Assembly (NCBI GenBank): GCA_965223415.1
Contig: OZ245002.1
Coordinates: 1,730,578-1,794,577 of the forward strand
Reading direction: 5' to 3'
DNA from: Myxococcota bacterium
GTDB taxonomy: Bacteria > Myxococcota_A > UBA9160 > UBA6930
Length of the DNA stretch: 64,000 nt
Each line of letters begins with the position of its first letter. The stretch's first letter is position 1. Made by a program: the position numbers and the translations under genes. The notes under the pieces are model-generated. The model made no database searches, had not been told where the DNA came from, and saw only the letters and a list, made by a program, of their open reading frames with translations. Below are positions 8,831 to 36,335 of the stretch, piece after piece.

Positions 8831-8867
8831 CGGGGCGTCACAATAGCAGGGGAACCCGGGAGGAACC

Positions 8868-9914: not shown

Positions 9915-11537
9915 GTGGGCTGGGACCTGGGGCTGCTGCTGTCGACCGGCCTCTGCGTCGGGATCGCGATCGACAGCCTGGCGCGCCCGCGGCGCCCGGG
10001 CCTGACGTCCGTGCTGCTCCTCGCCGTCTGCGGCGCCCTGTGGAGCGGGGGAGAGCTTCTGCTCCACCACGCGGGCTCGGCGGAGGAGATGCTGGCCCCT
10101 CGGCGCATCCTGTTCGCGGGCGTGTGCGCGCTGGGCCCGGTGCTGCTCTGGACGGCGGGGCACCTCCACGGCCCCAGCCTCCGAAGGCTATGCACCGGGA
10201 TCGCCGTCGCGGGCGGGATCCTCGAGCTCGGGCTCTACACATCCTTCTACGGCAGCGACCACGACCTCTTCATCTCCGGCGAACCGGCGAATCCCGCGCG
10301 CGGTCCACTCTTCTTCGTCCACGGCGCCACCCAGTGGGGATTGCTGTCGCTCGGTCTGCTGCTCTTCGCCGCGGCGGCGCAACGGGTTCGGACACGCCGG
10401 AGAGCGACAGGCTGGATCGTCGTCGCGGGAATCTGCTTGCCCCTCCTCGTGAACTGGCTCTACGTGGGCCTCGATCTCGCGCCGCGGGATCCGACTCCGC
10501 TGGCCATGGGCGTGACGGCGGCGACCCTGCGGTGGGGCGTGCTCGAGATGGTGGGTGCACCGTTCCTCGCGAGCCTCGCGCGCTCCGAGCTCCTCGACCA
10601 GCTCGACGCCGCCGTCCTGGTCGCAGACGGTCGTGGACGCGTCCTGGAGCTGAATCACACGGGACATGAGCTGCTCGGAGGGAGCGACCCGACCGGCGCG
10701 GAGCTGGGCTTCCTTCTCGAGCCCTTCGAGCGGGACCCGGGCTACGACGTGCGCCGCTTCCCGTTGGAGCGCCACGGGCTGCGGGTCGGCGAGGGCGTGA
10801 TCGTCACCGATCGGCGGCAGGCTCGAGAGGCGGAACGCCGCACGGACGTGGCGACCCGTCTCGAGGCGCTGGGCCTGCTCTCCCAGGGCCTCGCCCACGA
10901 GATCAACAATCCGCTCACCTCCGTGCTGGTGAGCACCGACTTCCTCGGCGAGCACGTCCGTCGCAGCGTCCGCGACCCCCACCGATGGGAGGAAATGGAG
11001 GCCCTGCTGGACACGATCGCCAGCGAGAGCATGCGCATCGCCGAGATCGTGCGACGGCTCGAGAAGCTCGCCGTCCTGCCTCCGAACGACGGAGCACCGG
11101 GTCGTGCGGACGTGTCCGCGGTCGCCCACCGCGTCGTGGGGCTCACACGCATCGGCAAGGACCGGCGGCGGATCCGGATGGAGCTGCCGAACCCGCCCGT
11201 CGAGGCCGCGATCCGGCCCGAGGAGCTCCTACAGGTGCTCCTGCAGCTGGTCTCGAACGCACTCGAGTCCGACGAGCGCGGGCACCCCGTCGAGGTGCAG
11301 GTCGACCCGGACGACGTCCAGGTCGTCGTCGAGGTTCAGGACCGGGGAACGGGCTTCGCCGACGTCGACCCATCGCGGATCTTCGACCCGTTCTACACGA
11401 CGAAGCGTCCCGATCGGGGCGTGGGCCTGGGCCTCTCGCTCTGCTGGGAGATCGCCCGGCAGAACGGCGGCCGGCTGGAGGCCCTCGCGCGAGAAGGCGG
11501 CGGCGCCCGCCTCCGCCTGACCCTCCCCCGAGCCTGA
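9915..11537 (+). CDS. Sensor histidine kinase with a polytopic N-terminal membrane domain
   Basis: GTG start. The N-terminal ~200 aa are hydrophobic. The H-box is LGLLSQGLAHEINNPLTSVL. The HATPase region reads VSNALES...VQDRGTGF...FYTTKRPDRGVGLGLSLC. Confidence 0.85.
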   Translation: MGWDLGLLLSTGLCVGIAIDSLARPRRPGLTSVLLLAVCGALWSGGELLLHHAGSAEEMLAPRRILFAGVCALGPVLLWTAGHLHGPSLRRLCTGIAVAGGILELGLYTSFYGSDHDLFISGEPANPARGPLFFVHGATQWGLLSLGLLLFAAAAQRVRTRRRATGWIVVAGICLPLLVNWLYVGLDLAPRDPTPLAMGVTAATLRWGVLEMVGAPFLASLARSELLDQLDAAVLVADGRGRVLELNHTGHELLGGSDPTGAELGFLLEPFERDPGYDVRRFPLERHGLRVGEGVIVTDRRQAREAERRTDVATRLEALGLLSQGLAHEINNPLTSVLVSTDFLGEHVRRSVRDPHRWEEMEALLDTIASESMRIAEIVRRLEKLAVLPPNDGAPGRADVSAVAHRVVGLTRIGKDRRRIRMELPNPPVEAAIRPEELLQVLLQLVSNALESDERGHPVEVQVDPDDVQVVVEVQDRGTGFADVDPSRIFDPFYTTKRPDRGVGLGLSLCWEIARQNGGRLEALAREGGGARLRLTLPRA

Positions 11538-13906: not shown

Positions 13907-14848
13907 CTACCGCGACTCCGCCAGCCGCTCCTCGACCCGCTCGATCACCGCCACCTCGTAGCGCGCCCCGTCCAGGGCGTTCATCTCCTGGATGCCCGTC
14001 GGGCTGGTGACGTTGATCTCGGTGAGCTTGCCGCCGATCACGTCGAGACCGACGAAGAACAGGCCGTCGCGCCGGATCCAGGGGGCGACCCGCTCGATGA
14101 TGGCGCGGTCCGTCGCGTCGAGGGCGCTCTTTCTGGCCTTGCCGCCGACGTGGAGGTTCGCCCGGATCTCGCCCTCCGGCGGCACGCGCAGCACGGCGCC
14201 GAGGGGCTCGCCCTCGAGCATCAGGATGCGCTTGTCGCCGGTGCGTACGTCGACCAAGAAGCGCTGGCCCATCACGCGGCGGGTACCGAAACGGGTGATC
14301 TGCTCGAGGATCGAGTGCAGGTTCGGATCGCTCCGCGAGACGCGGAAGATGCCCTCGCCGCCTCGGCCGTCCAGGGGCTTCACGATCATCTCGCCGCCGA
14401 GCGAATCCATGAATTCGAGCAGCCACGGGATCTCGTGGGTGACGAGGGTCTCGGCCATCAGGTCGGGGAAGTTCAGCGCGTAGAGCTTCTCGTTGGCCGC
14501 GAGGATGCCGGCCGGCCGGTTCAGCACGGTGGCCTTGCGGCACAGGCCCAGGATCTGGGTGGCGACGATGAACTCGTCGTCCACCGGTGGGTCCTTGCGC
14601 TGCCAGACCACGTCGAAAGCCTCGTCGAGGGCGACGTGCTCAGGCGCACCGGCGCGGAAGTGGTTGCCCCGCTCCCGCCGCATCGTGACGGGCCTCACGG
14701 TGGCGACGGCCCCCCGGGCGTCCACCCCCAGATCCGCCGGGTCGACGAAGGAGAGGCCGTGGCCCCGTTCCTGGGCGGCCAGCATCAGGGCGAAGGTGGT
14801 GTCGCCGTCGATGTCGATGGATTCCAGGGGATCCATCACGAAGGCCAT
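13907..14848 (-). CDS. gshB: Glutathione synthetase (ATP-grasp)
   Basis: MAFVMDPLESIDIDGDTTFALMLAAQERGHGLSFV...IVKPLDGRGGEGIF...GDKRILMLEGEPLGAV...NLHVGG...GLFFVGLDVIGGKLTEINVTSPTG closely follows the GshB N- and C-terminal patterns. The ORF stays open to 14869. Confidence 0.9.
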   Translation of the reverse strand: MAFVMDPLESIDIDGDTTFALMLAAQERGHGLSFVDPADLGVDARGAVATVRPVTMRRERGNHFRAGAPEHVALDEAFDVVWQRKDPPVDDEFIVATQILGLCRKATVLNRPAGILAANEKLYALNFPDLMAETLVTHEIPWLLEFMDSLGGEMIVKPLDGRGGEGIFRVSRSDPNLHSILEQITRFGTRRVMGQRFLVDVRTGDKRILMLEGEPLGAVLRVPPEGEIRANLHVGGKARKSALDATDRAIIERVAPWIRRDGLFFVGLDVIGGKLTEINVTSPTGIQEMNALDGARYEVAVIERVEERLAESR

Positions 14849-15020
14849 GCGCAGGGAGGATACAGCCACTCAGGAAGTCCTCAGCAAAGCAGGAGGGGAA
14901 CCCGAAACACGGGGAAGGGGTCTGGTTAGCGCAGGGCCTGCACCGTCGGCTACGGTGCGGTCCGAGATCCGGGGGGCCAAGGGCGTTGAGCCGCTTCCGC
15001 ATCCTGCCGACGGCCGGGCC

Positions 15021-17435
15021 GTGAGCCGGTTCCGCATCCTGCTCGCGGCCGTCGTGCTGCTGGGCGTCGCCGCCGGGGCCGCCGGCAGCGCCTTCTACCT
15101 GAAGTTCGTCCGCGATCTGCCGAGCTTCGAGACCCTGGCGGACTACCGCCCCCCGCTGACCAGCACGGTCGTCGATCGCCACGGCCAGCCCATCGGCGAG
15201 TTCTACGAGCACCGGCGCCAGCTGACGCCTCTGGAGGAGGTGCCGGGTGTCGTCATCGACGCCTTCCTGGCGGCGGAGGACGACACCTTCTTCGAGCACG
15301 ACGGCGTGGACTACGTGTCCATCCTGCGTGCGGCCTGGGCGAACCTGCGGGCCGGCGGCGAGACGGTGCAGGGCGCGAGCACCATCACCCAGCAGACCGT
15401 GAAGCAGCTGCTGCTGACGCCGGAGCAGACCTACGAGCGCAAGATCCGCGAGCTGATCCTGGCGCGGCGGATCGAGCAGCGCTTCAGCAAGGACGAGATC
15501 CTCTACCTCTACCTGAACCAGATCTACTTCGGCGCTGGTGCGTATGGCGTCGGCGAGGCGGCGCGCACCTACTTCGGCAAGGCGATCGGCGAGGTGGACG
15601 CGTCGGAGGCGGCGCTGCTGGCCGGGCTGCCGAAGGCCCCCGGGCGCAACTCGCCCTACCTGAACGCGGAGCGCGCCGAGGAGCGGCGGGTGTACGTGCT
15701 GCAGCGCATGCACGAGGAGGGCTTCCTCGACGCGGAGAGTTTCGGCGCGGCGCTCGCGAGCCCGCCGGCGCTGGCCAACCGTGAGCTGCCGGAAGCCTAC
15801 GAGGTGGCCTCCTACGTCACCGAGGACGTGCGACGGTCGCTGGTGGCGGCGCTGGGCAACGACGTGGTGCTGCGCGGTGGGCTGCGGATCGAGACGAGCG
15901 TCGATCTCGAGCTGCAGCGGGCGGCGGTGACCGCCGTGCAGACCGGTCTCGAGGCCCTCGATCGGCGGCGCGGCTACCGCGGGCCGCTCCGGCGCGTCGA
16001 GGATCCGGAGAACGCATGGACCGGGCTCGTCCCGGAAGAGGGAGAGGCGGACGCGCCCCGTCCGGATCGGCTGCAGGCGGTGGTGCTCGAGGTCGAGAAG
16101 GGACGCGCCCGGGTGGCCGTGGGGCCGGACCGGGAGGCGGAGCTTCGCCTGGAGGATCTCACCTGGGCGCGCCGGGAGGATGCACCGCGTCGCGAGGTGA
16201 AGGACCTGAACCGGGTGCTGGCCGTCGGCGACGTGGTGCCGGTGCGAATCGGCGAGGACGGCCAGGCCGTACTCGCCCAGCGTCCCCAGGCCCAGGGCGC
16301 GCTGCTCTCCTTCGACGTCGAGAGCGGTGACGTGCTCGCCATGGTCGGGGGCTACGACTTCGAGGACAGCGAGTTCAACCGTGCGACCCAGGCCAGCCGC
16401 CAGCCCGGCTCCGCCTTCAAGCCGATCGTCTACGCCGCCGCCCTCGGGCGGGGCTATACGCCGGCGTCGATGCTCTACGACCGGCCGGTCGTGATCGAGA
16501 GCGAGGGCTTCACCTGGCGTCCCGAGAACTACGGTCGCAAGTTCCTGGGCCCGATCCTGTTCGGCGAAGCGCTCGCCCGCTCGGTGAACAACGCCACGAT
16601 CCACCTGCTCCGGGACGTCGGCATCGACTACGTGATGGACTTCACGCGGCGGCTCGGGATCGAGGCGGAGCTCGAGCGCAACCTCGGGCTCGCCCTTGGA
16701 TCCAATCCGGTGACGCTACTCGAGCTCACGCGGGCCTACGGCGTGTTCGCGGCCGGCGGGCGCCGGGTGGAGCCGCGCCTGATCCACCGGGTGCTGGACC
16801 GGGACGGCGTGGTGCTGCTCGAGGCGGTGCCGCTGGCCCCGGTGCCGGAGGAAGACGAGGCACCGGAGGTGGCGGCCCGCCCGCCGGAGCCCCTGCGACC
16901 GGTGCTGCCGGAGCTCGCGGGCAGCGAAGGGGACGGGGCTCGGCCCGAGGACCAGCTCATTACGCCGCAGCACGCCTACCTGGCGAGCTCGGTGCTGCGT
17001 CTGGTGGTCGAGCATCCGCGGGGAACCGGGCGCCGGGCCGCGAGCCTCGGGCGTCCTCTGGCGGCGAAGACCGGCACGACCAATGATCAGGCCGACGCCT
17101 GGTTCGTCGGCTACTCGCCGGACGTGGCGACCGGTGTGTGGGTCGGCTTCGACGAGAAGCGGGTGCTAGGCCGCGGCGAGACCGGCAGCCGCGCCGCCGC
17201 GCCGATCTGGATCGAGTACATGGGCACCGCCCTGGCGGAGCGCCCCGTGCGCGACTTCCCCGTGCCCGAGGGCATCGTCTTCGCCCGCATCGACGGATCG
17301 AGCGGCCTGCTCGCCTCCAGCGCCAGCGAGCAGACCGTCTTCCAGGCCTTCGCCGAGGGCACCGAGCCGACCGAACGCGCCGACGCCGCCGTCACCGCCG
17401 CAAAGGAACGCCGCCGCCTGCAGCTCGACTTCTGA
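15021..17435 (+). CDS. mrcA: Penicillin-binding protein 1A (bifunctional glycosyltransferase/transpeptidase)
   Basis: TM segment: FRILLAAVVLLGVAAGAAGSAF. GT51 motifs: AFLAAEDDTFFEHDGVD, GASTITQQTVKQL, RKIRELILARRIE. Transpeptidase motifs: RQPGSAFKP, SVNN, KTGTTND. I chose the GTG at 15021; an alternative in-frame GTG lies at 14955. Confidence 0.9.
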   Translation: MSRFRILLAAVVLLGVAAGAAGSAFYLKFVRDLPSFETLADYRPPLTSTVVDRHGQPIGEFYEHRRQLTPLEEVPGVVIDAFLAAEDDTFFEHDGVDYVSILRAAWANLRAGGETVQGASTITQQTVKQLLLTPEQTYERKIRELILARRIEQRFSKDEILYLYLNQIYFGAGAYGVGEAARTYFGKAIGEVDASEAALLAGLPKAPGRNSPYLNAERAEERRVYVLQRMHEEGFLDAESFGAALASPPALANRELPEAYEVASYVTEDVRRSLVAALGNDVVLRGGLRIETSVDLELQRAAVTAVQTGLEALDRRRGYRGPLRRVEDPENAWTGLVPEEGEADAPRPDRLQAVVLEVEKGRARVAVGPDREAELRLEDLTWARREDAPRREVKDLNRVLAVGDVVPVRIGEDGQAVLAQRPQAQGALLSFDVESGDVLAMVGGYDFEDSEFNRATQASRQPGSAFKPIVYAAALGRGYTPASMLYDRPVVIESEGFTWRPENYGRKFLGPILFGEALARSVNNATIHLLRDVGIDYVMDFTRRLGIEAELERNLGLALGSNPVTLLELTRAYGVFAAGGRRVEPRLIHRVLDRDGVVLLEAVPLAPVPEEDEAPEVAARPPEPLRPVLPELAGSEGDGARPEDQLITPQHAYLASSVLRLVVEHPRGTGRRAASLGRPLAAKTGTTNDQADAWFVGYSPDVATGVWVGFDEKRVLGRGETGSRAAAPIWIEYMGTALAERPVRDFPVPEGIVFARIDGSSGLLASSASEQTVFQAFAEGTEPTERADAAVTAAKERRRLQLDF

Positions 17436-26274: not shown

Positions 26275-26754
26275 TACGTGGATCTCGGGCTCGAGGTGGG
26301 TGCCGGTGACGGTCAGGTGGCCGACGGAGCGGGTGCGACCGGGAGCGGGGGGGCCGGCGTAGCCGGGGTTGAAGTGGAGGCGGTCGCCGTGGCGTTCGAC
26401 CAGCGCTTCGTGGGTGTGGCCGTAGACGAGGGCGTGGGGGCGCCAGGTGTCCAGCTCGGCGGCGACGCGAGGATGGATGCGACCGAAGTTGTCGTACCAG
26501 TGGCAGAGGAGGATGCGCGCCGGGCCCAGCTCGACCCGTTGCTCCCACGGGTAGCGGTGGGTGAGCTCCGGATCGCCGTTGCCGACGACGGCGACGACCG
26601 GGGCCAGGGCGCGCAGTGCCTCGAGCAGGGCCTCATCCCCGACGTCGCCCGCGTGGAGGATGACGTCGGAGCCCTCCAGGGCCGCGCACACGTCGGGAGC
26701 GAGCACGCCGTGGGTATCGGCGACGATGCCCACCCGGGGCGAAGGCCCGCTCAT
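26266..26754 (-). CDS. YfcE/MJ0936-type metallophosphoesterase
   Basis: VGIVADTHG, ILHAGDVG, VVGNGD, LLCHW, ALVYGHTHE: the calcineurin-like phosphoesterase metal-binding motifs. There is an ATGA overlap with the upstream gene. Confidence 0.85.
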   Translation of the reverse strand: MSGPSPRVGIVADTHGVLAPDVCAALEGSDVILHAGDVGDEALLEALRALAPVVAVVGNGDPELTHRYPWEQRVELGPARILLCHWYDNFGRIHPRVAAELDTWRPHALVYGHTHEALVERHGDRLHFNPGYAGPPAPGRTRSVGHLTVTGTHLEPEIHVLR

Positions 26755-27794
26755 CGCCCGACGGGTCGTCGCAGGCGCGCGCCCCCGTGCAGGAAGACGA
26801 CGGCAGAGGGCTGGATCTCGCCGACCACGAGCACGCCCACGGCGTCGCCCTCCTGCAGCTCGAGCGGCTCCGGAAAGCCCTCCACCTCGACGCGAGCGCT
26901 GCGCCGCGCCGGATCCGGATGCCAGACAGTGCGCTCGACGGTCACCCGGGGTGCAGGCGGCACGCTCGCGACCCGCTTCGGCGACGGCTTCGGCTTCGCC
27001 TTGGGGGGTGCCGGAGCGGCGGGCTGCGGAGCCGGCGGCGCGGGACGCGCGAGCACCTCGGGCTCGGGCTGCGACTCCGCCACGGGAGGCCGTGTGGCAA
27101 CGCTTGGCGGGGGCGCAGGCCGGGCAAGGGGTTCCGCCTCCGCGACGGGCGGGGGCGCAGGCCGGGCAAGGGGCTCCGCCTCCGCGACGGGCGGGGGCGC
27201 AGGCCGGGCAAGGGGCTCCGCCTCCACGACGGGCGGGGGCGCAGGCCGGGCGAGGGGCTCCGCCTCCGCGGCCGGAGGCGGCCCAGGCCGCGCGAGGGGC
27301 TCCCGCTCGGCGACCGGAGGCGGGGGCAACAGGTCGCTGGCGAGCGCGAGATCGTCGGCGGCCTCGCGCGAGGGCCCGGGCGAAGGAGCCGGTCTGGCCA
27401 GGGGCTCCGACGGCGGCTGGCCGGGAGCCGCTCCGGGCGGCGGCACGACGGGACCGGCCGTGGCCAGCTCCTCTTCCGGCTGGACCGCAGAGGCCGGCGG
27501 CCCCGCCGGCGGCTCGACGGGACCCGCCGCCTCGGCCGGCTCCACCGCTACCTCCGGCTCGCCTCCGGTCGGGGTCCACAGCCAGGCGAGGAGCAGGGTG
27601 AGGGCCACGGCGGCGGCCCCAGCCAGGGCGCCGCGCCACGGCAGGCGGCGCCGGATGCCGGCTGCCGGGACGCGGTCGCCGGGCTCTCGCGGCGGCCCGC
27701 CTTCGCTGGGCGTCCCCGGCTCCGCCGGTGCATCGGAGCGGCCATGTCGCTCGTCCTCTTCGACCTTCTGGAGCGCCTTCAGGATCGTGCTCAC
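26751..27794 (-). CDS. gspB: GspB/ExeB-like protein with a proline-rich tandem-repeat linker
   Basis: The N-terminus MSTILKALQKVEEDER is the GspB signature, followed by one TM segment (GALAGAAAVALTLLLAWLW). The linker has five copies of AEAEPLARPAPPPV. The C-terminus is VERTVWHPDPARRSARVEVEGFPEPLELQEGDAVGVLVVGEIQPSAVVFLHGG, resembling the T2SS-B C-terminal domain. Confidence 0.65.
   Translation of the reverse strand: MSTILKALQKVEEDERHGRSDAPAEPGTPSEGGPPREPGDRVPAAGIRRRLPWRGALAGAAAVALTLLLAWLWTPTGGEPEVAVEPAEAAGPVEPPAGPPASAVQPEEELATAGPVVPPPGAAPGQPPSEPLARPAPSPGPSREAADDLALASDLLPPPPVAEREPLARPGPPPAAEAEPLARPAPPPVVEAEPLARPAPPPVAEAEPLARPAPPPVAEAEPLARPAPPPSVATRPPVAESQPEPEVLARPAPPAPQPAAPAPPKAKPKPSPKRVASVPPAPRVTVERTVWHPDPARRSARVEVEGFPEPLELQEGDAVGVLVVGEIQPSAVVFLHGGARLRRPVGR
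27106..27316 (-). repeat. 42-bp tandem repeat, about 5 units, in-frame within the gspB-like gene
   Basis: The unit is ggcgggggcgcaggccgggcaaggggctccgcctccgcgacg, with a period of 42 nt (for example ggcggggg at 27106 and 27148). It encodes (A/V)EAEPLARPAPPPV. Confidence 0.85.
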
Positions 27795-29602
27795 GAGGAG
27801 CCTTTCGGAGCCTCGGGCGCCAGGCCTGGGACCGCATAGCCGGGCAGCTCCCGATAGAGCTGGATCTTCGTGACCGGACCGACGGTGCCATCGACACCTA
27901 GCTCCAGGCGCTCCTGCAATGCGCGGACGCCGGCGATGGTGTTCGCGTCATAGTGCCCGGACGTCGCGTCGCTGAGCAGGCCCAGGTGGGTGAGCGCCCA
28001 CTGAAGCCAGCGAACCGGCTCGCCCTGGGCGCCAGGGCGCATCACCGACGGAAGGCCTTCGAAGTCCCGCCAGGGAACGAAGGCCTCGCCCGTCCAGTGG
28101 GCGAGGATCTCCTCGTCGGTAACGACCAGAGGGGCCGCGGCCACGCCGTGGAGCCGCGCACCTTCGCCGTCGAGCCCGGTGAGCGCCGCATAACGAGGTG
28201 CTCCGTCCAGCGCTTCGAGCACGAGCAGGGCCGGCAGGTCCAGGGCGCGGAGGGTGGAGAGGCGGGCCTCCCGCAGGTTCAGCAGTGAGAAGCCCTGGGC
28301 CCGCAGCGCCTCCACGAGCTCGGGGAGGGAAAGGACGCCGGCGCCGATCGGCACCTCCTCCCACTGCTCGAGCAGGGCATCCAGGGAGCTGGCCATCGTC
28401 ACGGCCGGCGAGCTGCGCGCGAGGGCGCGCCCCATGTCCTGGGCCGGCGGCGGAAGCTCCCCGGGATCGGGGAGGTCGCCCTCCTCCAGCGCCGCGAGCT
28501 CGTCCAGCGCAGCCGGGAGCTCCGCCGGCGGCGCCGACGCGACGGGAGGCAGCGCGTCCGCGGACGGCCCCGGCACTTCGGCCGTGACCTCGGCGGCAGG
28601 CGGTGAGGACACCTCCGGCAGGGCACCGCCGCCGCTGGCCGGCGCGAAGGCGAGCCAGCCGCCGATGGCGATGGTCACGAGCCCCACGCCGGCGGCCACG
28701 GGCAGGGCGCCGTCCCGGATCCAGGTCGGGATGCGCAGCCCCGACAGGCTGGGCAGGCTCGGCAGCCGCGCGGCCGTGCGGCGCGGCTTCGAGCCGGCGC
28801 TGGCGCGCACCTCCCGGTCGGTCTGGGTCACCAGCCCGAGGCCGATCGCCTTGGCCTCGGCGGCGTAGCCGGCCAGCAGGGCACGATCGCACAGCAGGTT
28901 GATCACCCGCGGAATACCCCCCGAGCGGCGGTGGATCTCGCGAAGCGCCAGATCCGTGAACAGCTCCCGGGGCGCGCCGGCGGCGATGCGCAGCCGGTGG
29001 CGCACGTAGTCCCGGGTGTCCGTCGCCGAGAGCGGCTCGAGCCGCCAGCGCACGCTGATGCGCTGACGCAGCTGGCGCAGATCCGGCGATTCGAGCAGCG
29101 TGTCCAGCTCGGGCTGCCCGATCAGCACGATCTGGATCAGCTTGGCGGTGTTCGTCTCCAGGTTCGAGAGCAGCCGCACCTGCTCGAGGGCGTCCCGCTC
29201 CATCACCTGGGCCTCGTCGATGATCAGCAGCACCTTGCGACCGTCGCGGCGCTTCGCGAGGAGGAAGCGGTTCAGCTGCTCATGGAGCTGACGGCGGTCG
29301 AGCCCTTCGAGGGGCAGGCCCAGCTCGGCGTTGATCGCCTGGAGCAGCTCCAGGCCCGAGAGCTGGGGGTTGAAGATGAAGGCGACCTCGGTGCCCGCCT
29401 CCAGGCGGCCGAGCAGGGTCCGGCACAGGGTGGTCTTGCCCGTGCCGACCTCGCCGGTGACGCAGATGAAGCCCTCGCCCTGCTCGATTCCGTACAGCAG
29501 GTGCGCCAGGGCTTCCCGGTGGGGATCCGCCAGGAAGAGATAGCGAGGGTCCGGGCTCAGGGAGAAGGGCTTCTCCCGGAGACCGTAGAACTGGGTATAC
29601 AT
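27791..29602 (-). CDS. gspA: ExeA/GspA-type AAA+ ATPase with a C-terminal peptidoglycan-binding domain
   Basis: MYTQFYGLREKPFSLSPDPRYLF...ITGEVGTGKTTLCR (Walker A)...LLIIDEAQ (Walker B), then a TM segment, and a C-terminal VRWLQWALTHLGLLSDATSGHYDANTIAGVRALQERLELGVDGTVGPVT (PG_binding_1-like). Confidence 0.85.
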   Translation of the reverse strand: MYTQFYGLREKPFSLSPDPRYLFLADPHREALAHLLYGIEQGEGFICVTGEVGTGKTTLCRTLLGRLEAGTEVAFIFNPQLSGLELLQAINAELGLPLEGLDRRQLHEQLNRFLLAKRRDGRKVLLIIDEAQVMERDALEQVRLLSNLETNTAKLIQIVLIGQPELDTLLESPDLRQLRQRISVRWRLEPLSATDTRDYVRHRLRIAAGAPRELFTDLALREIHRRSGGIPRVINLLCDRALLAGYAAEAKAIGLGLVTQTDREVRASAGSKPRRTAARLPSLPSLSGLRIPTWIRDGALPVAAGVGLVTIAIGGWLAFAPASGGGALPEVSSPPAAEVTAEVPGPSADALPPVASAPPAELPAALDELAALEEGDLPDPGELPPPAQDMGRALARSSPAVTMASSLDALLEQWEEVPIGAGVLSLPELVEALRAQGFSLLNLREARLSTLRALDLPALLVLEALDGAPRYAALTGLDGEGARLHGVAAAPLVVTDEEILAHWTGEAFVPWRDFEGLPSVMRPGAQGEPVRWLQWALTHLGLLSDATSGHYDANTIAGVRALQERLELGVDGTVGPVTKIQLYRELPGYAVPGLAPEAPKGSS

Positions 29603-29698: not shown

Positions 29699-30511
29699 AT
29701 GGGCGTCGACCTGGGGGCGAGCCTGGCGAAGCTGGCGATCCGCCACGGCCCGGGCGAGCGGGAGCTGCGGCTGTTGCCGGCGGAGGACGAGGGCGCCGTG
29801 CTCGGGGCGGTGGAGGAGCTAGCACCCCAGCGTGTCGGCCTCACCGGCGCCGGCGCCACGGGATTGGCCGGCCGGCTGCCCGGGGAGCCCCTGCTCGTGA
29901 ACGAGTTCGCGGCCTGGGGCCGGGGGGCGGCGGTGCTGCTCGACCAGCGCGAGGGCGGCGAAACGGAGCCCTTCCTGCTCGTCTCCCTCGGCACGGGCAC
30001 CTCGGTGATGCTGTGCGACGGCGTGGCGGTCAGCCGGATCGGCGGCACCGCGCTCGGCGGCGGCACCGTGCTGGGCCTCGGCGCGCTCCTGGTGGGCGAG
30101 GCGTCCTTCGAGCGCCTCGCCACGCTCGCGACCCAGGGCGACCGGCGCCGGGTGGACCTCCTGGTGGGCGACATCTACGAGCCGGGCCAGATCGCCCTCA
30201 TCGGCGATGCCACGGCGGCCGCCTTCGGCAAGCCAGGCATCCGCGGCGAGCCGCCGGCGGCCGAGGACCTCGCCCAGGCCATCATGGGCCTGGTCGGCGA
30301 GAACGTGGCGCTGCTCTGCTCGGCCCTCGCGAGCGCGCACCAGGTGAAGCGCATCGTGTTCGGCGGCTCGACCCTGCGCCACAACGGCGCTCTTCGCGCG
30401 ATCCTGCTCGGCACCACCGCCGCTTTCGGCCGCGAGCCGGTCTCCCTCGACGACGGCGAGTTCGCCGGCGCCCTCGGCGCCCTCGCCCTGGTCCGCGAAA
30501 CCGCCGCCTGA
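29699..30511 (+). CDS. ASKHA-fold kinase, type II pantothenate kinase (Fumble)-like
   Basis: MGVDLGASLAKLAI...GLTGAGA...FLLVSLGTGTSVMLCDG...RIGGTALGGGTVLGLGALL...RRVDLLVGDIYE...IVFGGSTL follows the Fumble/CoaW-type pattern. This is an inner ATG of ORF 28931..30511. Confidence 0.6.
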   Translation: MGVDLGASLAKLAIRHGPGERELRLLPAEDEGAVLGAVEELAPQRVGLTGAGATGLAGRLPGEPLLVNEFAAWGRGAAVLLDQREGGETEPFLLVSLGTGTSVMLCDGVAVSRIGGTALGGGTVLGLGALLVGEASFERLATLATQGDRRRVDLLVGDIYEPGQIALIGDATAAAFGKPGIRGEPPAAEDLAQAIMGLVGENVALLCSALASAHQVKRIVFGGSTLRHNGALRAILLGTTAAFGREPVSLDDGEFAGALGALALVRETAA

Positions 30512-30552
30512 GAACGCAAGCCCGGGGACGTTCCGTCCCCGGGCTTGCGTTC
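30512..30552. terminator. Perfect 19-bp-stem hairpin filling the convergent junction
   Basis: gaacgcaagcccggggacg ttc cgtccccgggcttgcgttc. The flanking stops are at 30509-11 (TGA) and comp. 30551-53 (TGA). It contains the GGGGACGTTCC core shared with the 57.6-kb and 63.7-kb palindromes. Confidence 0.7.
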
Positions 30553-32041
30553 AGAGCTTGGGGGCGGGCTCGCTGGGCTCGTCTTCGGGACGGGCGATGG
30601 TGCGCAGGACGCGCTGGGTGCGGGCGATGGCGGCGCGTTGGACCCGGAGCTCCTCGGTCTGGGCCGATGCTTGACGCTCGAGGCGCTCCTTGGCGTCGAC
30701 GACCTCCTCGAGGCGTGTCTCCAGGTGCGCGATGCGGCGCTCGAACTCCTCGACGATCTTCCCTACCTCGGCGTTGCCGACTTCGTTGGGGCCGACCGCG
30801 GCCATCGGTGCGACGGGAGCCACCGGAACGGCGGGCGCGCCGCCGATGCCGGCGGGCGCCGGGAAGTCCTCTTCCGGATCGTCGGTTCCCTCCACGACGG
30901 CCTCCTCCGCAGGCGCGCCCTCGTGGACGGCGCCGGGCTCGATGTCGTACTGGCTCGCCGGCGGCAGGCCCTCGTCCCGGGCCCCGGCGGCGCCCTCTCC
31001 CTCCAGGCCTTCGGAGAAGGCGAAGCCGGCCTCGGGCTCGGCATCCTCCGCCACGTCGAGGGGCGAGAGGACCTCGCCCTCGTCGGCATCGGCGCTTCCC
31101 CGCCGGCGGCGCCCCAGCACGAACAGCAGGGCCACGACCGCGAGGCCGGCCAGGGCGGTCAGTACGACCGGGCTGCCGAGCAGGCTTCCGCTGCCCTGGG
31201 CCGCGGGCGGCTCCAAGGGCGGCGTCGCCACCGGCGCGTCGGCGAGGGGCTCCTCGGAAACGACTTCGCCGATCTCCACGCCGGCGAAGGCGTCGTCGGA
31301 CCCCGGCTCGGGCTCGAGCCCTTCCGGCGCGTCCCCGAGCACCTCGCCTTCGAGGAGCGGCTCGTCGAGCGCCGCGAGCTCTGCTTCGGCCAGCGCCTCG
31401 TCCATCGCGGCGTCGTCCGCCGGATCGACCAGGTCGTCGCCGGCCATGGCCAGCTCTTCGACGGCGGCGTCGGAAGGGGCGAGCTCGTCCGCGGCTTCGA
31501 CGGCGCCCTCGTCCGCCGGGGCGAGGGGCTCGGCCACCGCGGCCAGCTCCCCGCTCTCCCGCAGCGGCTCCGCCGCGGGCGCGGGACTCGCGGTGAGGCT
31601 CGACACCAGGGAAGCCTTCCCGGCCCCCGGATCGAAGAAGTCCAGCACGATCCGGTCCGGCCCCCGGAGCACGAGCTCCTTCATCTCGGCATCGCCCGAC
31701 AGCCGGATGCGGACGTCGGTCTTGCCGCTCTCCCCGGCGCGCACGCGAACCGCCCGGATATGCCGGCTCTTGGCCGGACGGATCGGCGCGATCTCGCTGG
31801 GCGCGGCGTCGAGGGCGACGATCAGCACCTGGCTGCCGTCTTCCTTGGGCTGCATCCCGACCAGCTGGTAGGGCGAAATGCCGTCGAGCTGGAAGACCAC
31901 CCGCGAGTAGTCGGCGTGAACGCCGACCCGCACGTCGGTCAGGTTTGCGCCGCTCGCCGGGCCGGCGAGCAGCAGGACCACGCCGGCGATCAAGACGATC
32001 GTTCGGCCGCGGCCTTGGTCACGGAGCATTCGACACGGCAC
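30551..32041 (-). CDS. Bitopic envelope protein: signal peptide, AMIN-like domain(s), acidic linker, one TM segment, acidic region, and a C-terminal coiled coil
   Basis: Signal peptide: RTIVLIAGVVLLLAGPASGA. AMIN-like: DVRVGVHADYSRVVFQL and IRAVRVRAGESGKTDVRIRLSGDAEMKELVLRGPDRIVLDF. TM: LLGSPVVLTALAGLAVVALLFVLGRRRRG. Coiled coil: GKIVEEFERRIAHLETRLEEVVDAKERLERQASAQTEELRVQRAAIARTQRVL. The start is GTG at 32041 or ATG at 32029. Confidence 0.65.
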   Translation of the reverse strand: MPCRMLRDQGRGRTIVLIAGVVLLLAGPASGANLTDVRVGVHADYSRVVFQLDGISPYQLVGMQPKEDGSQVLIVALDAAPSEIAPIRPAKSRHIRAVRVRAGESGKTDVRIRLSGDAEMKELVLRGPDRIVLDFFDPGAGKASLVSSLTASPAPAAEPLRESGELAAVAEPLAPADEGAVEAADELAPSDAAVEELAMAGDDLVDPADDAAMDEALAEAELAALDEPLLEGEVLGDAPEGLEPEPGSDDAFAGVEIGEVVSEEPLADAPVATPPLEPPAAQGSGSLLGSPVVLTALAGLAVVALLFVLGRRRRGSADADEGEVLSPLDVAEDAEPEAGFAFSEGLEGEGAAGARDEGLPPASQYDIEPGAVHEGAPAEEAVVEGTDDPEEDFPAPAGIGGAPAVPVAPVAPMAAVGPNEVGNAEVGKIVEEFERRIAHLETRLEEVVDAKERLERQASAQTEELRVQRAAIARTQRVLRTIARPEDEPSEPAPKL

Positions 32042-32047
32042 CTCTGG

Positions 32048-32875
32048 TCACCCCCCTGTAGCCATGAGGTTCCGGAGCGCATGGAGCGCTCGGAAGATGC
32101 GAGGACCGTACCAAGACACCCATGTGCCGTCGATCACGTGGATGCGCCCGCTGCTCGCGGCCGGAACCGGCAGCCGCCCGAGCTCCTGGGCGTCCCGATC
32201 GGTGAAGGCGTAGGGCTCGTCCGGCAGCAGGATGACCTCCGGGGCCGCCGCGACGATGTCCTCCTCCCGGACCCGCGGATAGCGCCGGTCGGCCCGGTTT
32301 GCGAACACGTTCGCACCTCCGCACAGCCGCAGCAGATCGTGGGCGTAGGTGTCGGCGCCCACGGACATCCACGGGCCCTTCCAGATCGGACAAAAGACCC
32401 GCAGCGGGCGCTCGGGAAGCGCCGCCCCGGCCTCCTCCACCGCCGCCACGGTCGGATGGACCACCCGGCGCACCGCCTCCGGCTCGGCGCCGAGCCCGGC
32501 GAGGGCTACCAGCAGATGGGCGGCCTCGCGAACGCTGCGCGGATAGGTCACCCACACGGACACTCCGGTGTCGGCCAGCTTCGCCACGTCCTGCCGGCGG
32601 TTCTCCTCGTGGTTCGCGATCACCAGATCGGGCTCGAGGGCGAGCAGCGCCGCCACGTCCGGGTTCTTGGTGCCGCCCAGCTTGGGGAGCGGCGCGACCC
32701 CCTGGGCCGGGTGGATGCACCAGTCCGTCACGCCGACCACCCGCTCGCCCAGGCCCAGCTCGAACAGGGCCTCGGTCAGGCTCGGGACGAGGCTGACAAT
32801 GCGCCGGTACGTGCCCTCGGGCCGATCCTCATGGATCCCGAGATGCGTGCCTTCGGCCCGATCCTCGTGGATCAC
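32048..32875 (-). CDS. TroA/BtuF-fold (periplasmic-binding-protein type) protein without a signal peptide
   Basis: RRIVSLVPSLTEALFELGLGERVVGVTDWC...LGGTKNPDVAALLALEPDLVIAN...VILLPDEPY matches the cobalamin/siderophore-binding cluster-A fold pattern. The GTG start overlaps the upstream stop (GTGA). The N-terminus carries a duplicated IHEDR(A/P)EGT(H/Y) decapeptide. Confidence 0.65.
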   Translation of the reverse strand: MIHEDRAEGTHLGIHEDRPEGTYRRIVSLVPSLTEALFELGLGERVVGVTDWCIHPAQGVAPLPKLGGTKNPDVAALLALEPDLVIANHEENRRQDVAKLADTGVSVWVTYPRSVREAAHLLVALAGLGAEPEAVRRVVHPTVAAVEEAGAALPERPLRVFCPIWKGPWMSVGADTYAHDLLRLCGGANVFANRADRRYPRVREEDIVAAAPEVILLPDEPYAFTDRDAQELGRLPVPAASSGRIHVIDGTWVSWYGPRIFRALHALRNLMATGG

Positions 32876-34029
32876 GAGAAGTCGACGGCGAGAACGCCGC
32901 CCTGGAGGCTGGCCCGGTAGACCGGACGCCCCACGAGGCTGCGGGGCAGGGCCACGACCCGGCTGGCGTCCCGCAGCCGGATGAGCAGATCGTCGCCGCG
33001 GGTCCCGACCTCCAGGGCCTCCTTGGTCGCGCCGGGCAGCTCGATCTCGAGGCGCGTGCGCCCCGAGTGGGTGCGCAGCCGAATCGGCCGCCCCTGCCGC
33101 CAGAGCGCCCCGGGGTCGCGCTCGGCGAAGAGCCGCCCTGCCAGGGCCTGGAGCGCGGGCAGTCCCAGCACCTCGCGGGGCTCGAGCGGCGCCTCGATGC
33201 GCGGCACCGGAAACGAGCTGCGGATCTCCTCCAGCACCGCCCGCTCCCGCTCGCCCCAGCGGCCGAACCACCCGCCGGCGGCGGATTCCGGCAGGACCCG
33301 GTTCACGATCACCCCGTCGGTGGCGACACCGTAGAGCGACAGGTAGGCGAAGGAGCGGCGGGCCTCCTCCAGCACCACCTGGGTCGGGTTGACGACGAGC
33401 CGCGCCGTCGTGCGGCTGGTGTCCATCAGGATCTCCCGCACGTCGTCCACGTCGCCCCACAGCCGCTCGAAGGCGTCAAAGATCTCTTCGCCCGGCACGA
33501 GAGCGCCCGCCCGGAAGGGCTCGAGCAGCGGCTTCAGCAGGCGCGCTCCGCGACGCTCCAGCTCGAAGAAGTTCTCCATGAACAGCCGCAGCACGTCCGG
33601 GAAGCGGAGCATGCGCAGGGTCGAGCCGGTCGGCGCGCAGTCGACCACGCACACGTCGAAGTCGCCGGTGGCCTCGACGTCGCGGACGGCGCGAAGGGCG
33701 ATGAGCTCCTCCAGCCCCGGGAAGACCAGCAGCTCGTCGGCGACGAGGCTGTCCACGTCGTCCTTCAGCAGCTGACGCAGGTAGCGCTGCAGCACGCCCC
33801 AGCTGCGATCGAGCTCGTCGAGGGCCGACACCTCCTGGGCCACGACGCCCTCGACCACCGGGACGGGCCGCGCGCCGACGGGCTGGCGCAGGGCGTCGCC
33901 GAGGCTGTGGGCGGCGTCCGTGGAGAGGAGGAAGACCCGGTGGCCGCGAGCTGCGGCGCCGAGGGCCGTGGTGACGGCGTGGGTCGTCTTGCCGACGCCG
34001 CCCTTGCCGGTGAGCAGGATGACCCGCAC
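32872..34029 (-). CDS. ArsA/Get3-family ATPase (second of a pair) with an HSP20-like C-terminal domain
   Basis: VRVILLTGKGGVGKTT (deviant Walker A), LLSTDAAHSLGD, VVDCAPTGSTLRML (switch II), and the C-terminal RTRLEIELPGATKEALEVGTRGDDLLIRLRDASRVVALP. The GTG start at comp. 34027-29 lies 1 nt after the upstream stop. Confidence 0.8.
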   Translation of the reverse strand: MRVILLTGKGGVGKTTHAVTTALGAAARGHRVFLLSTDAAHSLGDALRQPVGARPVPVVEGVVAQEVSALDELDRSWGVLQRYLRQLLKDDVDSLVADELLVFPGLEELIALRAVRDVEATGDFDVCVVDCAPTGSTLRMLRFPDVLRLFMENFFELERRGARLLKPLLEPFRAGALVPGEEIFDAFERLWGDVDDVREILMDTSRTTARLVVNPTQVVLEEARRSFAYLSLYGVATDGVIVNRVLPESAAGGWFGRWGERERAVLEEIRSSFPVPRIEAPLEPREVLGLPALQALAGRLFAERDPGALWRQGRPIRLRTHSGRTRLEIELPGATKEALEVGTRGDDLLIRLRDASRVVALPRSLVGRPVYRASLQGGVLAVDFS

Positions 34030-34030
34030 G

Positions 34031-35227
34031 TCAGGCCGACCCGAAACGGACCCGCAGCACGCCGTCGCGACAGCGGGCGCCGAGCACGCCCTGGCCGAGG
34101 AGGTGGCGGGGCAGCGGAATGGGCCGGCGCAGGCCGCCGGCGCGCACCACGAGCTGGTCGCCGACCCGCGCCACCTCGAGCTGGTCGGCGCGGGCGTTCG
34201 GCAGCGGCACGCGGAGGGCATAGCCCTCGCCGTCCGGCTCGAACCGCAGGCCCGGCTCCCGACACAGGACGGCCGCCGGGTCCCGCTCGTCGAAGAGGGC
34301 GGCGCCCTGGGCCCGGAGCCGCGACAGGCCGGTGACCTCGTCGTCCTGGAGCGGACCGACCAGGAGGGGGAGAGGCGCGAACAGCGATGCGACCTCGCGC
34401 CGGCGCTCCTTCTGCTGGCGAGCCCACTCGGCGAAGAAGGGCTCGCCGGCGGCTTGCGCCGGAAGGAGCCGGTTCATCACGACCGCGTCCACGGCCACGT
34501 CGAACAGCGCCAGGTCGGTGCGTGCGCGCAGGCTCTCGTCGATCACCATCCGCTCGGGCGTCAGCACGAGCCGCACGCTCGTCCCCGGGTCGGCCAGGCG
34601 GTCCCGCAGCCGGCCGAGCTGCCGGTAGATCAGCGCCTCGGCATCGCGGAACACCTCGGAGCCCGGAAGCGGCGCCGCCACCAGGTTGCGGGCGAGGGGT
34701 GTGACGAGGGAGGTGAGCGCCCGCTGCACCTTGAGCAGGATGCGGAGCGCGGCGTGGGCGGCTTCCGGCAGCGTCAGCAGGCGCAGCGCGGAATCCGTGG
34801 GCGCGCAGTCGACCACGACCAGGTCGTAGTCGCCCTTGCGCGCCCAGCCGTCGACGGCCAGTAAGGTGGTCAGCTCCTCCAGGCCGGGCAGCAGGGCCAG
34901 CTCGTCGGCGACGACCTCCTCGATCCCCTGGTGGCGGAAGAGCTGGCCGAGGTAGTCGCGCACGGCACCCCAGTGGCGCTCCACCTCGGTCCGGGCGTCC
35001 ACCTCGGCGGCGAGCAGCCTACCGGGGTGGGGGGCTCCGGGAAGCGCGATGGGCTCCGGCTCGGCCCCGAGCGGCGCCCCTGGACGGAGCACGTCCCCCA
35101 GGCTGTGGGCGGCGTCTGCCGAGGCGACCAGGACCCGCTTGCCGCGAGCGGCCGCCCAGACGGCCGTGGCCGCGGCCGTGGTCGTCTTGCCGACGCCTCC
35201 CTTCCCGGTGTACAGGACGACGCGCAC
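34031..35227 (-). CDS. ArsA/Get3-family ATPase (first of a pair) with an HSP20-like C-terminal domain
   Basis: GTG start. VRVVLYTGKGGVGKTT, VASADAAHSLGD, VVDCAPTDSALRLL, and the C-terminal GYALRVPLPNARADQLEVARVGDQLVVRAGGLRRPIPLP. Confidence 0.8.
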   Translation of the reverse strand: MRVVLYTGKGGVGKTTTAAATAVWAAARGKRVLVASADAAHSLGDVLRPGAPLGAEPEPIALPGAPHPGRLLAAEVDARTEVERHWGAVRDYLGQLFRHQGIEEVVADELALLPGLEELTTLLAVDGWARKGDYDLVVVDCAPTDSALRLLTLPEAAHAALRILLKVQRALTSLVTPLARNLVAAPLPGSEVFRDAEALIYRQLGRLRDRLADPGTSVRLVLTPERMVIDESLRARTDLALFDVAVDAVVMNRLLPAQAAGEPFFAEWARQQKERRREVASLFAPLPLLVGPLQDDEVTGLSRLRAQGAALFDERDPAAVLCREPGLRFEPDGEGYALRVPLPNARADQLEVARVGDQLVVRAGGLRRPIPLPRHLLGQGVLGARCRDGVLRVRFGSA

Positions 35228-35242
35228 ACCGGGACGGTAGGG

Positions 35243-35455
35243 CTAGGCAGCCGCCGCCGCCGCGACCCGGTCGAGGCGCGCGGGCCGCGGAGAGCCCAGG
35301 CGCAGCGGGGTGGAAACGGCCCGCTCGGTCCAGCGGTGGTCGCAGCGCGGGCACTCGGCGAGCAGAACGACGCCGCGATCGACGACCTGATCGGTCTCGA
35401 CCTCGGTGAAGCCACAGACGAGGCAGCGGGTGAGGGTGCGGGTGGCAGCGGTCAT
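35243..35455 (-). CDS. Small 4-Cys zinc-ribbon protein (70 aa)
   Basis: MTAATRTLTRCLVCGFTEVETDQVVDRGVVLLAECPRCDHRWTERAV... carries two CxxC knuckles. An AGGAGG RBS lies 5 nt upstream. GC3 is high throughout. The stop lies 15 nt before the first ArsA-like start. Confidence 0.6.
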   Translation of the reverse strand: MTAATRTLTRCLVCGFTEVETDQVVDRGVVLLAECPRCDHRWTERAVSTPLRLGSPRPARLDRVAAAAAA

Positions 35456-35693
35456 GGGGCCTCCTGGCTCTCCATGGATCTCTCCATGGTGGGGGAGCGC
35501 CCCCGGCGGCGATCTCGTTGGGGGCCGTGATACCGCCGGGGGCTCGGGGGGGTTGGGGGCGTGCCGTCATCACGAGGATCAGGAAACCAGCCGCCTGTGA
35601 CGGTTCCGGTCACGGAGGCGAAAAAAAACCGAACCTCCGGCGCGGCTCCGGCAAAGCCCGTAGCCTGTGCCTCCCCGCCCCGGAGGAGGAGCC

Positions 35694-36335
35694 ATGCCCA
35701 GCGAGGTGCCGTCGGTCCGGCCGGTTCCCGGCCTCGCCCTGCTGGCCGACGATCTGCGCGCGTTGACGGAGCAGATGCTGCGTGTTCCGGCCCTGCCCGC
35801 CGACGCCGCGGAGGCGGTGGCCCGGACGCGTCGGGACCTCCGGGCCCTCACCCGCCAGCTCGCCGCCCACGCCCCCGACGACCGCACTCCGCGGATGGGG
35901 CCGGAGCCCGCCGCCCAGCGCCCCTACTTCGTGAGCGGCGTGATCCTGGGTGACCATCACCCCCTGCGCCCGGACCTCACCGTCTCGCACCGGCCCGGGG
36001 TGACCCGCGGCACGGTCCGCTTCGGCGTCACCTTCGAGGGGCCGCCCGGCAGCGTCCACGGCGGCTTCGTCGCCCATTTCTTCGATCAGGTGCTGGGCCA
36101 GCACAACCTGAACGAGCACATCCCGGCGATGACCGGCTCGTTGACCGTCCGCTACCGCGCCGCCACGCCGATCCTCACCGAGCTCGCCTTCGAGGTGCGC
36201 CACGAGCGCGTCGGCGAGCGCAAGGTGCGCACCTCGGGCGCCCTCGAGGCCGCGGGCACCGTGTACGCCGAAGGCGAGGGCACCTTCATCATCCCCCGCA
36301 ATGCCCATTGGAGCGAAGGAGGCCCGGAAGCGTGA
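35694..36335 (+). CDS. PaaI/hotdog-fold thioesterase with a long N-terminal extension (paralog 1)
   Basis: The ATG is preceded by GGAGGAGGAG. FEGPPGSVHGGFVAHFFDQVLGQHN...MTGSLTVRYRAATP...GERKVRTSGALEAAGTVYAEGEGTFI is the PaaI-type pattern. Confidence 0.75.
   Translation: MPSEVPSVRPVPGLALLADDLRALTEQMLRVPALPADAAEAVARTRRDLRALTRQLAAHAPDDRTPRMGPEPAAQRPYFVSGVILGDHHPLRPDLTVSHRPGVTRGTVRFGVTFEGPPGSVHGGFVAHFFDQVLGQHNLNEHIPAMTGSLTVRYRAATPILTELAFEVRHERVGERKVRTSGALEAAGTVYAEGEGTFIIPRNAHWSEGGPEA

Follow-up and report, generated by a model that had tools for sequence, protein, structure and literature searches.

Bacteria and chloroplasts widely possess Get3 homologs that carry an alpha-crystallin domain (PMC10248533; PMC6593721). 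The function of the bacterial proteins is open (PMC6593721), and the Get3d structure paper states that the partners of such ATPases have yet to be identified and that new ones must exist (PMC10248533). A locus in a Myxococcota bacterium raises the question of what such proteins work with: on the minus strand of a 64,000-nucleotide stretch of contig OZ245002.1 (assembly GCA_965223415.1, positions 1,730,578 to 1,794,577; hereafter the window), two ATPase genes of this kind stand within a tight group of five, which we call g1 to g5. We found that the zinc-ribbon gene g1, the ATPase pair g2 and g3, and the envelope-protein gene g5 form a conserved core that is restricted to one Myxococcota lineage, while g4, whose product resembles the cobalamin-binding protein BtuF, is a facultative accessory and not part of that core.

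A conserved cluster around two Get3-type ATPases

The genes and their junctions were read from the minus strand of window positions 30380-35800 and from the list of open reading frames (ORFs). The first gene, g1 (35243-35455), encodes a zinc-ribbon protein of 70 aa; g2 (34031-35227) and g3 (32872-34029, GTG start) encode ATPase A (398 aa) and ATPase B (385 aa); g4 (32048-32875, with a GTG start inside a GTGA overlap) encodes a 275-aa protein with a BtuF/heme-type periplasmic-binding-protein (PBP) fold; and g5 (30551-32041) encodes a bitopic envelope protein of 496 aa. Re-reading the sequence returned the junctions given in the initial annotation, namely 15 nt, 1 nt, the GTGA overlap (-4 nt) and 6 nt. 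Gene calls identical to the products of g1, g2 and g4 (70, 398 and 275 aa) also exist in a public protein collection.

An ATPase-A alignment, used to scan one genome per GTDB species, gave 80 loci, which were compared with the window's proteins by tblastn. They comprise a clade of 31 species-level metagenome-assembled genomes (MAGs; L002-L032), mostly labeled Myxococcota or "delta proteobacterium," and an outgroup of 49 loci (L033-L081) from Chloroflexota, Bacillota, Dormibacterota, Armatimonadota and Fibrobacterota. Identity to the ATPase A of the window is 53-64% in the clade and 35-46% in the outgroup. The A gene is present in all 31 clade loci and the B gene in every one that extends far enough, and the g2-g3 junction measures -4 to +3 nt in 26 of 28. 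A single copy of the g1 motif lies just upstream of the ATPases in 29 of the 31 (it is missing from L005 and L021), and 24 of the 25 with enough sequence have one copy of the g5 signature VRVGxHxxYTRVV, downstream of the ATPases and in their orientation. By contrast, all 49 outgroup loci have a single ATPase gene and none of g1, g4 or g5; the g1 motif was found in 0 of 49. The lineage is common in metagenomes, with more than 120 clusters (90% identity) containing ATPase A homologs at least 60% identical to that of the window.

The cluster had first been described as a five-gene operon whose neighborhood should recur in other genomes. Tight coupling does recur, and the synteny extends across 31 species-level MAGs, but it stays within one Myxococcota lineage, and the count of five does not hold throughout. 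The TroA-like gene g4 is present in 22 clade loci and absent from 8 of the 29-30 that could be scored (L004, L005, L009, L010, L014, L021, L024 and L029). Six of these eight keep g1, and g5 directly follows g3 in all of them except L014, where g5 was not found in the remaining sequence.

Both ATPases belong to the Get3/ArsA family as ancient paralogs, and both end in an alpha-crystallin domain, an architecture referred to as Get3d or "Group 6." Among hidden Markov models (HMMs), PF02374 (ArsA_ATPase) scored 229 bits on g2 and 238 bits on g3, TIGR00345 (TRC40/GET3/ArsA) 197.7 and 215.2 bits (cutoff 135), and PF17886 (ArsA_HSP20) 61.7 and 48.6 bits (cutoff 22.5). The HSP20-like extension suspected on both proteins is thus borne out, and every other domain call made at the outset (ArsA, Peripla_BP_2 and AMIN) was upheld as well. 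The sequences GKGGVGKTT, DCAPTDSALRLL and DCAPTGSTLRML were found as first described. The motifs are intact in both proteins: GKGGVGKTT (deviant Walker A), S(A/T)DAAHS with the switch I Asp, DCAPT (switch II), the adenine-selecting beta-7 Asn in MNRLLP and VNRVLP, and an A-loop-like PLxxxEVxGL. The deviant Walker A, switch I and switch II residues are invariant across a 20-sequence alignment. Cysteines are few (C141, C322 and C386 in g2; C127 and C131 in g3), only the one next to switch II is conserved, and neither protein has a CxxC. Nor does either have cysteines flanking switch II at what we take to be the positions of the metalloid-binding residues in Escherichia coli ArsA.

The paralogs share 42% identity and an identical architecture, and in a neighbor-joining tree the A clade and the B clade are each monophyletic, with parallel topologies. 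An AlphaFold2 (AF2) model of g2 (predicted local distance difference test score, pLDDT, 79.8) has beta strands across residues 328-396. In a Foldseek search its nearest match was archaeal Get3 (3zq6, 1e-20); it aligned over its full length, beta-sandwich included, with NosGet3d (8egk) and AtGet3d (8elf), and it also matched BagB (6bs3_B). The region of the TRC40 insert aligns without gaps to Methanothermobacter thermautotrophicus Get3, and its helices (residues 154-186) have low pLDDT in the model.

Get3d (AtGet3d, 8ELF; NosGet3d, 8EGK) is the nearest described family (PMC10248533; PMC6593721). Like it, g2 and g3 have a single Get3/ArsA domain, a deviant Walker A, an apparent TRC40-type insert, no CxxC and a C-terminal PF17886 domain. 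Unlike Get3d, which is a single-gene homodimer, they are two diverged paralogs from abutting genes and probably form a heterodimer; their switch I, beta-7 Asn and A-loop-like motif are intact, unlike those of AtGet3d and NosGet3d; and their genes are linked to a dedicated membrane-protein gene and a zinc-ribbon gene. The Get3d structure paper links the architecture to photosynthesis (PMC10248533), whereas the present host is not known to be phototrophic; in an earlier survey, Get3 proteins bearing the alpha-crystallin domain were widespread among non-phototrophs (PMC6593721). The nearest single-gene relatives of the pair come from Bacillota, Dormibacterota, Armatimonadota and Fibrobacterota, in agreement with that survey.

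Assignment of g2 and g3 to described subfamilies was also tried. The NosAFP equivalog NF050088 gave 109.6 and 119.9 bits against a cutoff of 325, so that the architecture is common to both but orthology is not. The models for BagA (NF053622) and BagB (NF053621) reached at best 44.8 bits against 400 and 57.4 bits against 521, over the N-terminal part only. Judged by such scores, the pair are not orthologs of NosGet3d, BagAB or ArsA. The comparison drawn early on with Rv3679/Rv3680 of Mycobacterium tuberculosis (BagA/BagB, PDB 6BS3) therefore holds as an analogy and not as kinship: there too two adjacent genes encode Get3-like ATPases, which form a heterodimer, but the gene context is different, and no linkage to AMIN, zinc-ribbon or BtuF-like genes has been described for BagAB. 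The combination was thought to be new when it was first noticed, and full-text searches indeed turned up no account of AMIN, zinc-ribbon or BtuF-like genes in linkage with an ArsA/Get3 pair.

The envelope protein g5, the zinc-ribbon protein g1 and a possible docking mechanism

Reading from the N-terminus, g5 consists of a signal peptide and one AMIN domain, then an acidic, Pro-rich periplasmic linker, a transmembrane helix with RRRR behind it, a second acidic linker in the cytoplasm and a coiled coil. This order is conserved in its orthologs and matches the layout first proposed for the protein, except that AMIN-like repeats had been envisaged and there is a single domain. The AMIN domain (31634-31945, minus strand; aa 33-136) is predicted to be periplasmic and to bind peptidoglycan. 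On g5 itself the scores are marginal (AMIN-like, 28.1 bits, cutoff 27; AMIN, 26.6 bits, cutoff 20.5), but PF11741 matches 20 of 20 orthologs and PF24837 matches 19 of 20, and the g5 AMIN profile matches the AMIN region of E. coli AmiC (4bin) at E = 1e-3; on these profile matches we regard the assignment as solid. Together, Asp and Glu account for 26% of the residues in the first linker and 24% in the second. The transmembrane helix (31112-31183, minus strand; aa 287-310) was located by hydropathy scan of g5 and its orthologs, and the RRRR that follows it places the C-terminus in the cytoplasm.

The strongest new signal of the analysis is the conservation of a helix in that C-terminal region. 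Within the coiled coil (30593-30766, minus strand; aa 426-483) lies a near-invariant Arg-rich block (30602-30691, minus strand; aa 451-480), written KERLERQ..QTEELRVQRAAIARTQRxxR or RERLERQVAAQTEELRVQRAAIARTQRxxR. This helix of 29 residues is at least 90% conserved across 20 species in which the AMIN domains are 27-41% identical and the linkers unalignable; g5 outside the block is at 30-40% identity where it can be aligned at all. Within the helix, codon positions 1 and 2 are 95% conserved versus 69% at position 3, so selection acts on it at the protein level.

No described family matches the helix: against Pfam, the g5 C-terminus gave only subthreshold matches to generic coiled coils (PUMA_CC, SlyX). 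A database search with it returned 332 proteins, all of which appear to come from the same type of cluster; the four contexts that were opened all carried ArsA genes. Candidate stand-alone helix proteins of 70-230 aa were rejected, as their four opened contexts turned out to be the same cluster in frameshifted long-read assemblies or at contig ends. In L082-L085 (ENA ERZ250394xx/ERZ250396xx and Joint Genome Institute [JGI] contigs), for example, frameshifts break the cluster into many short gene calls. Such fragments sit in databases as apparent coiled-coil proteins of 70-230 aa, some of them labeled EnvC, TatA or chromosome segregation ATPase by JGI.

The product of g1 has the motif CxxC-x21-CxxC-HRWT, followed by a variable tail and a C-terminal -AA. 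Its HMM matches are all to zinc-ribbon families and all below threshold, and it looks like a structural zinc ribbon. An exhaustive phmmer search of 1.84 billion proteins returned a family of 257 representative clusters, essentially all small proteins, among which there was no fusion to an ATPase and no informative fusion partner. The tails of the family, 20-50 aa long, are variable apart from their ends: 108 of 124 motif-bearing representatives (87%; P0361-P0510, mutual identity at most 50%) terminate in Ala-Ala, as do 22 of the 29 clade proteins. In the ssrA degron, which ClpXP recognizes, a C-terminal -AA is the critical element. The conserved end of g1 resembles it, so g1 is plausibly a short-lived factor under proteolytic control. 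In L007, two opposite-strand genes, encoding an RRM-type RNA-binding protein (98 aa) and a 168-aa protein, lie between g1 and g2 (8645-10001), which shows that g1 is retained there though separated from the ATPases.

Our favored mechanism is a heterodimeric, Get3-like chaperone ATPase docked to an inner-membrane receptor that is pinned to peptidoglycan, a lineage-specific module to which we tentatively assign a probability of about 40%. In such a module g2 and g3 would pair as an obligate A/B heterodimer, following the precedent of BagA and BagB, likewise products of adjacent genes (6BS3). The heterodimer would be anchored at the inner membrane by g5 as its receptor, with the AMIN domain and the Pro-rich acidic linker pinning g5 to the cell wall and the Arg-rich helix providing a docking or ATPase-regulating element. 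This role for the helix is suggested by analogy: the Get1 coiled coil and the basic helices of Get2 dock Get3, and basic peptides regulate MinD and ParA. Through its ATP cycle, the heterodimer would bind clients that are hydrophobic or prone to aggregate (tail-anchored proteins, for instance, or other membrane proteins) and let them go at inner-membrane sites marked by the wall. The zinc ribbon g1 would act as a small adaptor or regulator, short-lived unless bound, and g4 as an optional cytoplasmic ligand-binding accessory. An envelope-anchored ATPase module had been proposed when the cluster was first noticed; the idea fits the evidence gathered here and is strengthened by the near-invariant cytoplasmic helix.

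Several observations weigh against this mechanism. First, g5 is not homologous to Get1, Get2 or WRB, and it has no Pfam match beyond AMIN. The patch of yeast Get3 that binds Get1 and Get2, which we take to be DELYED, presumably has no acidic counterpart in g2, so the docking mode would be new. The ATPases are also poor in methionine (2 in g2 and 3 in g3), unlike the eukaryotic Get3 that binds tail anchors, and single-gene relatives in other phyla exist without g1 or g5. Co-transcription of g1 to g5 is something we infer from gene spacing. Because the whole region is syntenic in the lineage, the co-occurrence of the genes partly reflects shared ancestry, and synteny is weaker evidence than it appears. 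Finally, g5 could work with a neighboring GspA-like ATPase instead.

A related possibility, which we regard as unlikely, is a GET-like pathway of independent origin, in which a Get3d-like heterodimer, g5 as a wall-pinned receptor that docks it by the Arg-rich helix, and a degron-bearing g1 that gates the chaperone would bring membrane or hydrophobic clients to defined inner-membrane sites. The genes would then be the first partner set of a bacterial Get3-type ATPase to be defined genetically. The likeness to the eukaryotic pathway (Get3 with Get1/Get2, or with WRB/CAML) would lie in a dimeric Get3-fold ATPase paired with a membrane protein whose conserved coiled coil or basic helix faces the cytoplasm. 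The differences are that g5, besides being non-homologous to Get1/Get2, has a single transmembrane helix and so no insertase-like membrane domain, that it has a periplasmic wall-binding domain, and that the acidic Get1/2-binding patch of Get3 is presumably not conserved in g2.

We consider it unlikely that g5 is instead a polar or septal landmark resembling HubP/FimV, which would recruit the deviant-Walker-A pair to position a cargo such as a complex or an organelle and not to insert membrane proteins. AMIN domains target AmiC and PilQ to septal or polar peptidoglycan, and HubP anchors three ParA-like ATPases. With these precedents, the layout of g5 (a wall-binding periplasmic domain, one transmembrane helix, a long acidic cytoplasmic region and a conserved C-terminal module) fits such a role, and the Arg-rich helix is the type of element that regulates ParA and MinD ATPases. 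Get3 and ArsA have also been placed in the Mrp/MinD branch of the SIMIBI nucleoside triphosphatases (PMC10248533). However, the resemblance to HubP/FimV is architectural only: g5 has AMIN in place of LysM, and Pfam finds in it neither LysM nor the FimV C-terminal domain. The ATPase fold, with its predicted client-binding insert and its alpha-crystallin domain, is Get3-like and not ParA/MinD-like, and the cluster has no ParB-like, MinE-like or cargo gene. The comparisons with Get1/Get2 and with HubP concern a possible mode of working, not family membership.

Locus ends and flanking genes

The initial annotation placed an AGGAGG ribosome-binding site before g1, and it is present at 35460-35465 (minus strand), 4 nt 5' of the ATG. 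The divergent intergenic region upstream (35456-35692), presumed to bear the promoter, also exists; it measures 237 bp, one less than first given, if the neighboring gene starts at the ATG at 35693. Within it, in a window that is ~72% GC overall, an A8/T8 run (35621-35648) preceded by a short GC stem was rated terminator-like on the minus strand, upstream of g1, by a terminator scan; it might be a promoter, an UP-type element or a regulatory site. No sigma-70 site was found in a scan of 30300-35900, and Rfam gave no match, whether to a cobalamin or any other riboswitch, in the whole window at the gathering threshold or in a permissive scan of 35200-35800.

At the other end, the perfect 19-bp stem reported for the hairpin downstream of the cluster was confirmed (30512-30552, GAA loop), between the convergent stops of g5 and a Fumble gene. 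Its folding energy is -52.2 kcal/mol (z = -7.5 versus shuffles). The g5 stop codon includes the first 2 nt of the stem, and the opposite end of the hairpin meets the Fumble stop. The hairpin lacks a U-tract or T-tract, for which reason the terminator scan missed it; from its contact with both stops we read it as probably a shared bidirectional terminator. A 791-aa plus-strand ORF (30545-32920; GC at third codon positions, GC3, 0.81) runs antisense to g4 and g5 without independent support and is a GC-rich shadow ORF; simple gene picking by GC3 favored it over the real g4 and g5.

Beyond the Fumble gene, the minus strand of 26751-29602 encodes a GspA/ExeA-like protein (27791-29602), with AAA_22, a transmembrane helix and PG_binding_1, and a 347-aa protein with a GspB-type N-terminus (STILKALQKVEEDER). 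The former scored 290 bits against a cutoff of 324.5 for TIGR03015. The latter has about five tandem Pro-rich units of about 14 aa each (AEAEPLARPAPPPV; ~27090-27320, minus strand) within its predicted periplasmic linker. All clade loci with enough sequence have the GspA-like gene downstream of g5, and 14 loci gave a match to the 347-aa gene; L005 has no Fumble gene, and there the GspA-like gene (14104-15903) comes directly after g5 on the same strand. The GspA-like/GspB-like pair may belong to the same envelope system as g5.

These neighbors bear on the view that there is no integrated system at all, which we hold to be distinctly unlikely. The ATPase pair, perhaps with g1, would then be a soluble stress chaperone, g5 would belong with the GspA/GspB-like proteins or with nothing in particular, and the adjacency would be inherited synteny. 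Indeed, the entire region is syntenic across the clade: Fumble and the GspA/ExeA-like and GspB-like genes follow g5 in nearly all loci, directly and on the same strand in L005 as regards the GspA-like gene, and an acyl-CoA synthetase gene lies ~4 kb upstream in 20. Moreover, the single homologs of the outgroup have no recurring membrane partner; their sole recurring neighbor is a MarR-like gene, which immediately precedes the ATPase gene on the same strand at 15 loci and hints, from this linkage, that the single-gene form may be a chaperone under stress control. One example that was opened is L037, a Chitinispirillaceae MAG with a MarR-family regulator (9458-9937) before a Get3-plus-alpha-crystallin gene. 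Against this view, the gap before g5 in the window is only 6 nt, all 24 clade loci in which g5 was found have it immediately behind g3 or g4 in the same orientation, and neither g1 nor the g5 helix was found outside loci that carry the ATPase pair. In addition, the cluster persists where the upstream order breaks: a 222-aa gene lies at a variable distance, RidA is absent from 31 of 31 loci, and L007 carries its insertion.

Farther away, an ArsR/SmtB-family helix-turn-helix gene (1804-2151, minus strand) is divergent to a gene for a 1034-aa protein with an LPG_synthase_TM region and a sulfatase domain (together 1804-5398). This pair, ~29 kb from the cluster, looks unrelated to it.

The accessory protein g4 and the wider implications

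The proposal that g4 is a signal-less protein of the PBP fold is supported by HMMs, by a structural model and by its orthologs. It scored 203 bits with NF038402 (TroA-like "helical backbone metal receptor"; cutoff 30) and 68 bits with PF01497 (Peripla_BP_2; cutoff 27.5). The AF2 model (pLDDT 91.4) has a long backbone helix at residues 132-151, and its Foldseek matches include BtuF (5ysc, 1e-20, template-modeling [TM] score 0.78) and heme-binding PBPs (TM score ~0.78), at 24-26% identity. A signal peptide is absent from 22 of 22 orthologs, so g4 is presumably cytoplasmic. The best 120 matches to g4 are all from the same clade, 62-78% identical, and are uninformative on outgroups.

The fold and the acidic residues on each lobe, here E90/E91 and D219/E220, are shared with BtuF and with ShuT, BhuT and RhuT (class III PBPs). 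Unlike those proteins, g4 is signal-less, its gene lies inside an ATPase operon with no adjacent ABC permease or ATPase, and it has three invariant cysteines (C53, C162 and C185). Its invariant residues also include W52, E90, E91, R197 and R198, as well as His55 in a conserved WC(V/I)HP loop; no ABC permease occurs in the conserved neighborhood. The tryptophans of BtuF that contact B12 (W66 and W85) are not conserved in g4 on inspection of the alignment, and g4 failed as a BtuF equivalog (PRK03379, 75 bits against a cutoff of 234). At its N-terminus (window 32800-32875), g4 has a tandem repeat of 10-12 aa, IHEDRAEGTHLG and then IHEDRPEGTY. Orthologs in L019, L023, L025, L026 and L032 have an HP(R/H)VH motif before the PBP fold, and such a His-rich extension could be a metal-binding tail.

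These features raise the possibility of cytoplasmic cofactor or metal handling, in which g4 and g1 would bind a corrinoid, heme or metal, the ATPase pair would drive its transfer, and g5 would be the site of membrane exit or delivery. ArsD handing arsenite to ArsA and the G3E metallochaperones are analogies for such a scheme, which the fold of g4, its invariant Cys and His residues, the acidic pairs on both lobes, the absence of a signal peptide, the overlap of its start with the g3 stop codon and the His-rich N-terminus of some orthologs would all suit. We nevertheless think it improbable: the eight clade loci without g4 retain the ATPase pair (six of them with g1), the ATPases lack the ArsA-site cysteines, the BtuF tryptophans are not kept, the Rfam searches returned no cobalamin riboswitch or other element, and g1 resembles a structural zinc ribbon.

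Arsenite or antimonite resistance by a split ArsA with a transporter encoded elsewhere, as the Pfam name ArsA_ATPase and the label "arsenite-transporting ATPase" given to relatives by source annotations might suggest, is effectively excluded, since g2 and g3 have one domain per protein and score 82.1 and 83.6 bits against the TIGR04291 cutoff of 650, the metalloid-binding cysteines are missing, the apparent TRC40-type insert and the alpha-crystallin domain are typical of Get3 and not of ArsA (PMC6593721), and the conserved neighbors (zinc ribbon, BtuF-like, AMIN, Fumble and GspA-like) include no ArsB, ACR3, ArsC or ArsD. The earlier statement that the window holds no arsB, arsC or arsD stands for the neighbors of the cluster and ten further window ORFs, which are a part of the window.

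The module is known only from an uncultured Myxococcota lineage. Within that limit, the cluster supplies the first candidate partners, by conserved genetic linkage, for the bacterial Get3 family with an alpha-crystallin domain: g5 with its near-invariant cytoplasmic helix, g1 with its degron-like C-terminus, and the presumably cytoplasmic, BtuF-fold g4. All three are small enough for co-expression, pull-down and AlphaFold-Multimer, so that the question of partners for bacterial Get3 homologs becomes one of direct binding and ATPase experiments. If the link holds, it would reveal how the bacterial envelope and a soluble chaperone ATPase are coupled, and it might guide the search for partners of plant and cyanobacterial Get3d.

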